A stretch of DNA of 42,554 nucleotides from an uncultured Anaerolineae bacterium (GTDB lineage Bacteria; Chloroflexota; Anaerolineae; CAYNKW01): assembly GCA_964453885.1 (NCBI GenBank), contig CAYVPU010000001.1, forward strand, positions 1 through 42,554. Reading direction: 5' to 3'. The translations under genes and the position numbers were made by a program. Of this stretch, positions 36,599 to 38,547 are shown piece after piece. The notes below the pieces were generated by a model. The model made no database searches and was not told where the DNA came from. It saw nothing but the letters and a program-made list of their open reading frames with translations. Within the stretch, counting starts at the first letter, position 1; each line of letters opens with the position of its first letter.

Positions 36599-37867
36599 TC
36601 ATCGCTCTGGATAGGGAAATGCTGCTAATTGGCGGCCATCCTTCGCGGTGAGATGCCAGGACGCGGGGATGTGAAACATGCCATGACGTTCCTTGATCTC
36701 TTTTGCGGGCACGACGATGAGCTCGGCGCAATAACGCCTAAAGTCGTAGGCGTGGAGTCCCTCGTAGTCGTGGATGGCAGCGGTGACCAGGTAACGGCCA
36801 GGCAACAGCGGCAGCGAGGGAATACGGTAGTCCATGTACCCAGAACCCTCAATGCTTCTTACCTCGTAACCAGAGAAGACATTATTGGGGCCGCTGACCT
36901 GGGCGCCGCTCTCGTGGTGAATGGCCAGCCCAAACTGGGGCTGCTCGATGCGCTGATGCGCCTGATAGTGCAGGCGCAAGGTTATTTCCTCTCCGGTGAC
37001 AAAGGCGCGCCGGGGTTTAGCCGCCGCATCGAGCAATTCAACCCGTTCCAGTTCCACCTCGCGGCTTCCCCAACGATGTGCTTTGTCAGTGGCATCGGCC
37101 GGCGCAAAGTCAGCTGTGCCCTGGGCCACTATACCATCCAGGTAAGCGTGGGTGACGCGCTCTACATCGCCGGCCGCCTGAATCTGCCCTTGCTCGACCC
37201 AGAGAGCTCTGTCGCACATGCTACGAATCTTTTCCAGTTCGTGAGATACAAAGAGCACGGTCACGCCTTGGCACTTCAACTCGCGGATCTTGTCCAGGCA
37301 TTTGTTCTGGAAGGTGTGATCGCCCACAGCCAGCACCTCGTCAATCAGCAGCACTTCGGGGTCCGAGTGGACGGCAATAGAGAATCCCAGGCGCATGTAC
37401 ATGCCCGAGGAATAAAGGCGCACCGGCGCATCAATGAATGAACCTATGCCGGCAAAGTCTGCGATGTTGTCAAAGCGCTTTTTGATCTTCCTCCGGCTCA
37501 GCCCCAGGATAGAGCCATTGAGAAAGACGTTCTCCCGCCCCGTCAGGTCAGGGTGAAAGCCAACGCCCAACTCTAGCAGTGCCGACACCCGTCCATGGGT
37601 GATGACTTGGCCGGAGGTAGGTTCGATGACCCGCGAGATGAGTTTGAGGATAGTACTCTTGCCCGCGCCGTTGGGGCCAACAAGGCCCACCATCTCGCCG
37701 GGTGACACTTGAAAGCTCACGTCCCGCAGCGCCCAAAACTCCTCGCGAGGGCCGTGCCCTTTGAGGCGGAGGACGTTCAGGGTCAACTCTTGGAAAGAGC
37801 GTGGCTTGTCCCGATGGATTAGAAATCGTTTTGAGACACGGTCAAGACGGACGGCCGGTTTAGTCAA
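36599..37867 (-). CDS. wzt: Polysaccharide ABC-transporter ATP-binding protein with C-terminal glycan-binding-type extension (Wzt-like)
   Basis: Walker A [9 protein letters not shown], signature [11 protein letters not shown], Walker B [11 protein letters not shown], then a beta-rich C-terminal domain of about 170 aa. The TTG start overlaps the upstream stop (TTGA at 37864..37867). Confidence 0.85.
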   Translation of the reverse strand: [422 protein letters not shown]

Positions 37868-38547
37868 TGGTCTTCCTCAAAAAACAATCTGGTAGTCTGG
37901 CTAAGGAGCCATGCAGCACCACCGATGGTCGCCATGGCCAAGAGAATGTAAAGCCACCGCTCGCCCCAGATAGAGGGTTTATTCTCGACCAGGCGATCCA
38001 GCAGAGCTGTCGCCTTATCACGGTAAGACCCCTGATAGTAGGCCTGAAAGTGCAGATCCCCTCCTGCCGGTACGCCATTGCGAAACATCATTCCCTGCAG
38101 GTACAGGTCCCGAGGTTGCATCCAGATGGTGATGGCATCGCCTTCGACCGACGACGGGGATTCGACACAGAAGTAAAATGTCCGCCCCGCCGAGTCCGGG
38201 ATGGGCGAAAAAGTGAATGAATGATAAGCAAAGTCTTCCACCTCGCTGGCGTTAAGAGGCAGGGTAAAGACGTCGTCGGGCGCGTCCGGGGCCGTCTTTA
38301 GATAAAAGATCACCTCGCGCGCGTTTGGGCGGGCATATGTGCCCATAAAGATATCAATGCGGTGGAGGTGGTTGTAGCGAGCCAGAAAGGTCTGGCCCAC
38401 CGTCTCTCCGCTGACGATCTGGCCCACTGATTCGGTGTGGGTGTCTTGGGTTTCGATGGGCATTTGGATCTGATTCAGAGCCGAGTAGGCAACGATGACT
38501 AGACCCAAAGCAAGGGCAACCCAGGTGAATACCATCTCACGGCGCAT
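37864..38547 (-). CDS. Bitopic membrane protein: N-terminal TM, extracytoplasmic beta-domain, C-terminal TM (partner of the upstream GT-C)
   Basis: Start set at ATG 38547 (GGAG 9 nt upstream), giving MRREMVFTWVALALGLVIVAY. C-terminal helix WLYILLAMATIGGAAWLL. The middle domain is collinear with the N-terminal domain of the 20239..21603 product. Confidence 0.6.
   Translation of the reverse strand: MRREMVFTWVALALGLVIVAYSALNQIQMPIETQDTHTESVGQIVSGETVGQTFLARYNHLHRIDIFMGTYARPNAREVIFYLKTAPDAPDDVFTLPLNASEVEDFAYHSFTFSPIPDSAGRTFYFCVESPSSVEGDAITIWMQPRDLYLQGMMFRNGVPAGGDLHFQAYYQGSYRDKATALLDRLVENKPSIWGERWLYILLAMATIGGAAWLLSQTTRLFFEEDH

Follow-up and report, generated by a model that had tools for sequence, protein, structure and literature searches.

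The textbook system for exporting O antigens, teichoic acids and mycobacterial galactan by an ATP-binding cassette (ABC) transporter consists of the channel Wzm and the ATPase Wzt, whose genes are regarded as inseparable. We analysed a wzt gene that has no wzm beside it, on a stretch of 42,554 nucleotides from an uncultured Anaerolineae bacterium of the Chloroflexota (contig CAYVPU010000001.1, positions 1 to 42,554, hereafter the window). It is preceded by genes for a GT-C glycosyltransferase and for a protein with two transmembrane (TM) helices, here called BIT. This Wzt belongs to a Chloroflexota clade that has lost linkage to wzm throughout, and its permease is probably an unlinked Wzm.

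The O-antigen exporters of Aquifex aeolicus (PDB 6AN7, 6OIH, 7K2T and 8DKU) and E. coli O9a and O8 are like the window system in the ATPase motifs, the N-terminal helix region and the Wzt_C domain. The window wzt also lies amid GT2/GT1 polymerising enzymes and genes for rhamnose-type sugar nucleotides, but a GT-C and a two-TM protein resembling a carbohydrate-binding module (CBM) stand in front of it instead of wzm. Most Chloroflexota are monoderm, and the host is expected to be monoderm. Models of TagH, from the wall teichoic acid exporter TarGH/TagGH, gave the best scores for the ATPase domain, under the equivalog cut-offs; TagH itself, however, has no Wzt_C-type domain of this kind, and tagG adjoins tagH in the known systems. 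The Type VII ABC systems (MacB, FtsEX, LolCDE; mechanotransmission) resemble the window in that the neighbour of the ABC ATPase gene encodes a membrane protein whose extracytoplasmic part is large, but FtsX and MacB have four TMs and a coupling helix where BIT has two TMs, and the window ATPase is of the Wzt type and not of the FtsE/MacB type. MsiK of Streptomyces is an ABC ATPase encoded away from its membrane partners, one ATPase serving many importer permeases. It shows that ATPase and permease genes can lie apart and that a subunit can be shared; here, however, a single Wzm exporter channel would be common to several Wzt paralogs, an arrangement not described before. Mycobacterial AftB (PDB 9DLF) is like the window GT-C over the N-terminal part only. 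Both are polytopic with a C-terminal extracytoplasmic region, but part of the ectodomain of the window enzyme would be supplied in trans by BIT (in cis in other Chloroflexota). As in the GtrA/GtrB/Gtr* and GT136 systems (PMC11127046), a GtrB-like GT2, a flippase-like protein and GT-Cs are encoded beside an ABC-dependent pathway; the differences are that the window flippase is of the UPF0104/MprF type and not GtrA or MATE, that each GT-C has an extra BIT, and that Wzm is missing.

The genes and domains at issue are as follows (lengths in amino acids, aa).

36599..37867 (-): wzt, 422 aa, ABC ATPase with a C-terminal carbohydrate-binding domain, TTG start (Pfam, NCBIfam, PDB match)
37133..37867 (-): nucleotide-binding domain of Wzt, residues ~1-245, including the conserved N-terminal RSFQEL segment and the Q-loop/helical-subdomain motif (alignment to TarH and Aquifex Wzt)
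36671..37081 (-): Wzt_C beta-sandwich domain, residues 263-399 (Pfam PF14524, alignment to 8DKU)
37864..37867 (-): TTGA start/stop overlap of the BIT gene and wzt (sequence)
37864..38547 (-): BIT, 227 aa, predicted N-terminal TM, CBM-like beta-sandwich, juxtamembrane helix and C-terminal TM (AlphaFold2, Foldseek)
38537..38547 (-): 11-nt overlap of the GT-C stop and the BIT start (sequence and gene calls on L001)
38537..40165 (-): AftB-like GT-C glycosyltransferase, 542 aa, at least 8 TMs (profile against PDB, NCBIfam, TM scan)

Here and below, L-numbers denote related or control loci fetched for context and P-numbers denote Wzt homologs. The four nucleotides at 37864-37867 are common to the BIT stop (GAC CAT TGA) and the Wzt start (TTG ACT AAA). 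The BIT ATG at 38547 lies 11 nt within the GT-C gene, whose stop ends at 38537 and whose open reading frame (ORF) allows a start as far up as 40318. Gene calls made independently on the ENA copy of the contig (L001) gave the same starts and boundaries, and the overlaps described in the first-pass annotation of the stretch were exact.

That annotation had also called the ATPase Wzt-type, with the ABC motifs and a beta-rich C-terminal extension of the kind that binds the glycan terminus, and both calls were borne out. Pfam placed ABC_tran at residues 47-178 (E=1.2e-21) and Wzt_C (PF14524) at residues 263-399 (E=2.7e-27; 96 bits against a cut-off of 30.4). The best PDB relative was the full-length Aquifex Wzt (8DKU/7K2T; phmmer, E=2e-71), in an alignment covering residues 41-368, that is, the ATPase domain and the C-terminal carbohydrate-binding domain; the alignment to TarH (6JBH) in the same kind of search begins at residue 6. 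Walker A, the signature YSSGM, Walker B (LLIDEV), the D-loop (AVGD) and the H-loop (VSH) could be read in the translation. The best NCBIfam matches were TagH (E=5e-65) and galactan Wzt/RfbE, all far under their equivalog cut-offs. The gene encodes a canonical, bona fide Wzt. Among the homologs, five longer Chloroflexota variants of 580-627 aa (P0059, P0089, P0109, P0127 and P0164) carry two tandem Wzt_C domains; a Wzt-TM fusion was rejected for these proteins, whose extra length is the duplicated C-terminal domain only.

Homologs of this Wzt are very numerous, and identity to it falls from 77-93% to about 55% before reaching a broad plateau. In a neighbour-joining tree built with 90 Wzt sequences, drawn from all of the fetched loci, the window and its ~55% relatives (L035, L036, L121, L122 and L127) fell in one monophyletic Chloroflexota clade together with L002, L007, L015, L021, L041, L044, L045 and L048. 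Linkage was counted when wzm lay within 4 kb of wzt, and the flanks of the clade loci extended up to 10 kb. A nearby wzm was found in 0 of 13 assessable clade loci and in 60 of 68 loci outside the clade (Fisher p=5e-10, with phylogenetic kinship ignored), in the latter mostly directly upstream of wzt; the first-pass annotation had rightly taken the lack of an adjoining wzm to be unusual. None of the ~55% relatives has an ABC2_membrane gene within 8-10 kb on either side. The clade loci without wzm include six that also have no GT-C or BIT neighbour (L036, L041, L044, L045, L122 and L127). Three of these (L036, L122 and L127) show the gene order leuS, GH5-like gene, wzt, (methyltransferase), glycosyltransferase (GT), with L127 reading leuS-wzt-methyltransferase; a methyltransferase and GTs follow wzt in L036 and L127, as in terminator-coupled O-antigen systems. 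A sister Chloroflexota clade (L046, L049, L123 and L124) has wzm and wzt linked with overlapping stop and start codons, the overlap being 4 nt in L049, L123 and L124. The Wzm family of this sister clade is Chloroflexota-labelled and highly conserved, with 66-92% identity over 120 clusters, and the two Chloroflexota Wzm matches that were examined in context were both plain linked wzm-wzt pairs. These data show a clade-wide loss of wzm linkage in the lineage of the window Wzt.

Outside the clade, the Bacillota locus L040 (Monoglobus pectinilyticus NZ_OY725740.1, 12396-13580) encodes a Wzt with Wzt_C and no Wzm within 2.5 kb on either side. Because seven further outside loci also have no nearby wzm, unlinked wzt occurs sporadically there. 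A GH5-like ('Cellulase') protein with an N-terminal TM recurs beside unlinked wzt or beside BIT/Wzx genes (L036:6484-7968, L122:8486-9970, L041:1077-2591, L128:205-1752 and L035:3976-5502); it has no homolog in the window.

The ATPase domain of the unlinked clade was then compared with that of Wzm-linked Wzt. The Q-loop and the start of the helical subdomain, which from general knowledge of ABC transporter structures we take to be the permease-contact region, form a stretch that is invariant across the unlinked clade in the alignment columns. The consensus of the clade is the same as that of Wzm-linked Wzt both in the catalytic motifs and in this segment, and the N-terminal ERPRS..E..L..L segment is similar in the two groups. 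Since the two consensus sequences agree, the membrane interface of the ATPase domain shows no sign of change relative to Wzm-dependent Wzt, as far as can be judged from sequence.

No ABC-2 permease was found in the window, in agreement with the first-pass annotation. Pfam detected no ABC2_membrane among all window ORFs of at least 150 aa. A hidden Markov model (HMM) of Wzm, seeded with one annotated protein each from Rhodococcus, E. coli O8 and Planctomyces, gave nothing at E<=10 in all six window frames and in 36 Chloroflexota-type loci; the negative is meaningful, because in a set of 80 unrelated Wzt loci the same HMM recovered Wzm in most, with E-values of 1e-39 to 1e-63. Hydropathy was also scanned in every frame from stop to stop. 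The membrane proteins that emerged were SecDF, CvpA, the two GT-Cs of the window, the UPF0104 protein, the GtrB-like GT2, the BIT paralog at 20239-21642 (3 TMs) and a Proton_antipo-like ORF at the right edge; a further frame with 3 TMs, at 31174-32160 (+), overlaps an epimerase gene. Profile comparison by hhalign gave a probability of 0.3% for Wzm against the GT-C family and 0.5% against UPF0104. A Wzm hidden in the window was rejected on these four lines.

A wzm homolog just outside the window, which the first-pass annotation had named as part of what would count against its reading, was not present in the 4 kb past the right window end (L001), where Mrp/Nuo-like membrane genes lie instead; a 289-aa membrane ORF beyond that end had no Wzm similarity in a profile-profile comparison. 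About 4 kb past the end, one of the Mrp/Nuo-like genes contains a run of N (L001:3900-4100), a scaffolding gap. In the 13 clade loci, GT-C was the only recurrent polytopic neighbour found. The 8-TM protein after wzt in L103 was considered as an alternative permease and rejected, being an O-acyltransferase (Acyl_transf_3). By Pfam on the ORFs, the window encodes no initiating phosphoglycosyltransferase and no Wzx or Wzy; the cluster therefore relies on genes elsewhere in any case.

BIT matches no Pfam or NCBIfam model, and specifically neither FtsX nor MacB_PCD, and has no similarity to Wzm. Its AlphaFold2 model (mean pLDDT 87) consists of a helix at residues 2-25, an 11-strand beta-sandwich at 39-171, a juxtamembrane helix and a C-terminal helix at 197-226. 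Foldseek matched it to CBM6/22/35, a porphyran-binding CBM, the carbohydrate-binding domains of BcsB and phage receptor-binding domains, at TM-scores of only 0.25-0.48. Positive charges ahead of the first TM place the sandwich outside the membrane, so that only about 5 residues at the N-terminus and about 10 at the C-terminus face the cytoplasm. The 51 close homologs are all unannotated and without Pfam domains, and the few named ones are from Chloroflexota. A profile search of 1.8 billion representatives returned 4005 clusters; among the best 150, about 60% are standalone proteins of ~230 aa and about one third are embedded in proteins of 500-1000 aa.

The domain forms were read in 28 GTDB loci, nearly all labelled Chloroflexota. 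In L009, L011, L015, L032 and L034, BIT forms the C-terminal part of GT-Cs of the same family, and in L029 and L033 it is fused to a PMT_2-type GT-C; in L004, L006, L010 and L013 it is encoded after a GT-C and no wzt lies close by. Within the window, a BIT paralog occupies the N-terminal half of the 20239-21642 product (hmmsearch with the BIT profile, E=3e-8; hhalign probability 96.8%, E=2.7e-10), whose gene lies directly after the second GT-C gene (DUF2142) and overlaps its end. Because of these GT-C fusions and this paralog, we assign BIT to the GT-C and not to the ABC transporter: it is predicted to be a membrane-anchored, CBM-like ectodomain, a split-off subunit of the upstream GT-C. The gene after the standalone BIT of L128 encodes a Wzx flippase and not a Wzt. 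BIT-like sandwiches also form the C-terminus of TM-less GT1/GT2/WsaF enzymes of about 1000 aa (L014:3721-6684, L021:7661-10609 and L022:7355-10426), and on the strength of these fusions the BIT-type glycan-binding module appears to serve on both sides of the membrane, in the cytoplasm and outside.

Two TMs, few cytoplasmic residues, a CBM-like ectodomain, the lack of Wzm or FtsX similarity and the fusions to GT-C make BIT implausible as a permease, and most likely it is not a substitute for one. As a Wzm/ABC-2 permease it was rejected for having two TMs, against about 260 aa and six TMs, and no match to PF01061 or the Wzm profile. As a Type VII subunit of the FtsX/MacB kind it was rejected for having two TMs instead of four and only ~5 and ~10 cytoplasmic residues. 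Nor can BIT be a general replacement for Wzm, because clade members without a BIT or GT-C neighbour also lack wzm. The C-terminal tails of BITs that precede Wzt (window, L002, L007, L035 and L121) are acidic, as in LFFEEDH, FLEDELP and ILEDERT, whereas those without a following Wzt (L004, L006, L010 and L013) are neutral or basic, as in KLAQRE and RLIQMKR. The difference may reflect phylogeny alone, and the tail was rejected as a docking signal for Wzt, since it shows an acidic trend only and no conserved motif.

A protein of the N-terminal TM, ectodomain, C-terminal TM layout upstream of every clade wzt was also considered and rejected. In L041, L036 and L044, GH5-like or CARDB proteins hold the place upstream of wzt. 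L021 and L015 encode proteins of ~200 aa rich in Pro, Thr and Ser (L021:14090-14785 (-) and L015:14025-14603 (-)), with an N-terminal signal or TM and a C-terminal TM anchor; these low-complexity anchors are unrelated to BIT (hhalign probability 1.9%). The two proteins adjoin a DUF4012 protein and a TMEM260/PMT-like GT-C, lie in L021 directly upstream of wzt, and are possibly O-glycosylated surface proteins.

The GT-C that completes the triad has an acidic motif, YDDPFITYRYARNL, in its first loop that aligns to the catalytic-loop DD of AftB, the YDDPF motif being the part that aligns with the DD. A profile of ten members of its family matched AftB (9DLF) at E=7.7e-9 over the N-terminal ~220-240 residues; weak Pfam matches of the family were DUF2079, DUF2142 and PMT. 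A TM scan predicted a polytopic protein, and its C-terminal region is taken to be extracytoplasmic. NCBIfam NF041481 (beta_arabfuran_tase) matched at E=3.8e-6, and because this score is far under the equivalog cut-off, the enzyme is a relative and not an ortholog of AftB. AftB is a GT-C with a polyprenyl-phosphate sugar donor (PMC12041299).

The triad of GT-C, BIT and Wzt genes with the 4-nt BIT/Wzt overlap is present in five lineages (window, L002, L007, L035 and L121), in which the Wzt proteins of the other four are ~48-84% identical to that of the window. As it recurs in these four, the overlap is not due to chance. In L002/L008, which come from one metagenome-assembled genome, the triad is an isolated three-gene module amid unrelated genes. 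Looser associations were seen in L015, where wzt divergently adjoins a GT-C-BIT fusion gene, and in L021, where it lies within ~2.3 kb of a BIT-domain GT. In L048, a gene of 150 aa directly upstream of wzt (9534-9986) retains only the BIT TM helices and juxtamembrane helix, with the sandwich deleted, and no GT-C was detectable in the 10-kb flanks; this remnant is either decay or a hint that the TM hairpin is important to Wzt.

We consider it probable that the permease is an unlinked Wzm, possibly shared with a linked pair of the sister clade, and that the coupling of BIT and wzt joins consecutive steps of one pathway. On its domain content and relatives, Wzt would supply the ATPase of a pathway by which this Anaerolineae-type Chloroflexota bacterium makes a cell-envelope glycan and exports it through an ABC transporter. 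From what is known of these families, the polymer would be built on a polyprenyl carrier by the cytoplasmic GT2/GT1 enzymes encoded downstream, its finished and probably capped end would be recognised by the C-terminal beta-sandwich of Wzt, and ATP hydrolysis would power export through a Wzm-type ABC-2 channel encoded elsewhere, perhaps the Wzm of the sister-clade wzm-wzt pair. The GT-C/BIT pair would act on the glycan outside the membrane, and the BIT-wzt coupling would serve co-production of the successive steps, export followed by extracytoplasmic glycosylation or ligation. That the permease lies elsewhere is most likely because the window Wzt clade has lost its wzm linkage, and the absence of wzm from clade loci both with and without GT-C/BIT supports an unlinked permease. 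The first-pass annotation had offered a permease encoded elsewhere or a non-canonical membrane partner; the clade-wide unlinking favours the former, and the two-TM protein, with its GT-C fusions, does not stand as the latter. Several points weigh against an unlinked Wzm. We infer it from clade searches that covered loci with flanks of at most 10 kb, and outside the clade wzm and wzt are unlinked only rarely. The triad with its 4-nt overlap has been kept in five lineages, and where it is isolated (L002/L008) it fits a self-contained machine equally as well as pathway co-expression. Moreover, wzt stands divergently beside the GT-C-BIT fusion in L015, and the BIT TM helices are kept before wzt in L048.

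Most of these same loci can be read in favour of a Wzt dimer bound to the AftB-like GT-C from the cytoplasm, with BIT as the ectodomain subunit, to give an ABC-energised glycosyltransferase, ligase or translocase without Wzm. ATP hydrolysis and cap recognition by the C-terminal domain of Wzt would then feed or gate lipid-linked glycan into the GT-C. The conserved triad with its start/stop overlap, its isolation in L002, the neighbourhoods of L015 and L021 and the hairpin remnant of L048 all fit such an assembly, as do the fact that BIT fills the operon slot held by wzm in other Wzt loci and the acidic tails (hydrophobic-hydrophobic-E-D/E) of the BITs that precede Wzt. We nevertheless think it unlikely. 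Six clade members without wzm have no GT-C/BIT neighbour either, GT-C and BIT pairs are common without Wzt, and BIT also precedes a Wzx gene (L128). The permease-contacting region of the ATPase is the same as in Wzm-dependent Wzt, the GT-C profile has no Wzm similarity by hhalign, and the tail difference may just track phylogeny. To our knowledge, no ABC transporter has a GT-C membrane domain. It is rather unlikely, too, that the Wzm-less clade uses no Wzm and that Wzt dimer, GT-C and BIT form an ABC-powered machine for one-step glycan translocation and/or transfer. A pairing of the clade with an unrelated, unlinked membrane protein of non-ABC-2 type, or a Wzt that is a soluble ATP-dependent sensor of the glycan terminus regulating cytoplasmic GTs (chain-length or termination control with no transport), appears more doubtful still. 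The GT-C as sole recurrent polytopic neighbour in 13 loci, the BIT-like sandwiches on TM-less cytoplasmic enzymes (L014, L021 and L022) and the Wzt homologs with duplicated C-terminal domains are compatible with it, but the catalytic and permease-interface motifs are strongly conserved, as is typical of a transporter ATPase, and the cluster encodes no export route (Wzx or synthase), so that an exporter is needed. We know of no permease-free Wzt, and literature searches gave no precedent for one. Finally, a misassembly, contig break or degenerating cluster could have removed wzm; the window is from a metagenome-type assembly, and its ENA twin has the N run ~4 kb upstream. Such an artefact is highly improbable, for the gene order is the same in two independent assemblies of the organism (window and L001) and recurs in many other lineages, where the ORFs are intact, the overlaps are conserved and the catalytic motifs do not vary; conservation across independent assemblies effectively refutes it.

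Literature searches retrieved no description of a Wzm-unlinked or orphan Wzt, of Wzt in Chloroflexi or of the BIT domain. The enzyme family was known before and the mechanism is probably conventional; the novelty lies in the conserved arrangement of the genes and in BIT as an accessory domain. If one Wzm channel serves several cap-specific ATPases, glycan export would have a new modular logic; if the ATPase has taken a different membrane partner and this is the GT-C with BIT, that partner would represent a new class for ABC ATPases. Whichever of the two holds, it matters for understanding the assembly of the Chloroflexota envelope, of which little is understood so far, and in the mundane case the locus is an ordinary glycan cluster with an unlinked permease. 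BIT in itself is a large unannotated CBM-like family that accompanies GT-C as a two-TM subunit or fusion and is found also on cytoplasmic polymerising GTs.

The minus strand from ~40.3 kb to 20.2 kb is a single densely packed glycan-biosynthesis operon whose first genes are those of GT-C, BIT and Wzt. Its further genes, and three unrelated to the glycan cluster, are given below.

34039..36567 (-): two-domain GT2 and GT1 cytoplasmic glycosyltransferase, 842 aa, polymerising type, the next operon gene after wzt (Pfam)
26488-27372 (-): GtrB-like GT2 with C-terminal TMs (Pfam, TM scan)
25510-26478 (-): flippase-like protein of UPF0104/MprF type (Pfam, NCBIfam TIGR00374)
24261-25517 (-): polysaccharide pyruvyl transferase
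23112-24245 (-): FrhB/FdhB-like protein, after the pyruvyl transferase gene
21617..23077 (-): second GT-C of the cluster, DUF2142 (Pfam PF09913, E=5e-18)
20239..21642 (-): 467-aa protein with the BIT paralog in its N-terminal half, residues ~16-240 (hmmsearch, hhalign)
6973-9240 (-): fusion of a Ser/Thr protein kinase with a long array of TPRs, not related to the glycan cluster
11224-13725: MutS2, near the kinase-TPR gene, unrelated to the glycan cluster
1434-3833: SecDF, near the kinase-TPR gene, unrelated to the glycan cluster

Pyruvylation by the 24261-25517 product could provide the terminal cap recognised by the C-terminal domain of Wzt. The GtrB-like GT2, the UPF0104/MprF-type protein, the DUF2142 GT-C and the BIT paralog with extra TMs make up a second glycosylation set in the same operon (20239-27372 (-)), which looks like a three-component system with an unusual type of flippase. 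By family assignment, the GtrB-like GT2, the UPF0104 protein and the GT-Cs are candidate ingredients of a three-component extracytoplasmic glycosylation system, in which the first two would supply the lipid-linked sugar donor for the GT-C enzymes. Such glycosylation alongside a Wzm/Wzt-type pathway has been described for Citrobacter O antigens (Kelly et al.; PMC11127046). Downstream of the triad in L121, three small coiled-coil proteins with a common PLVGP(L/I)I.WVRR motif are encoded among GT genes (18117-20952) and are possibly chain-length regulators.

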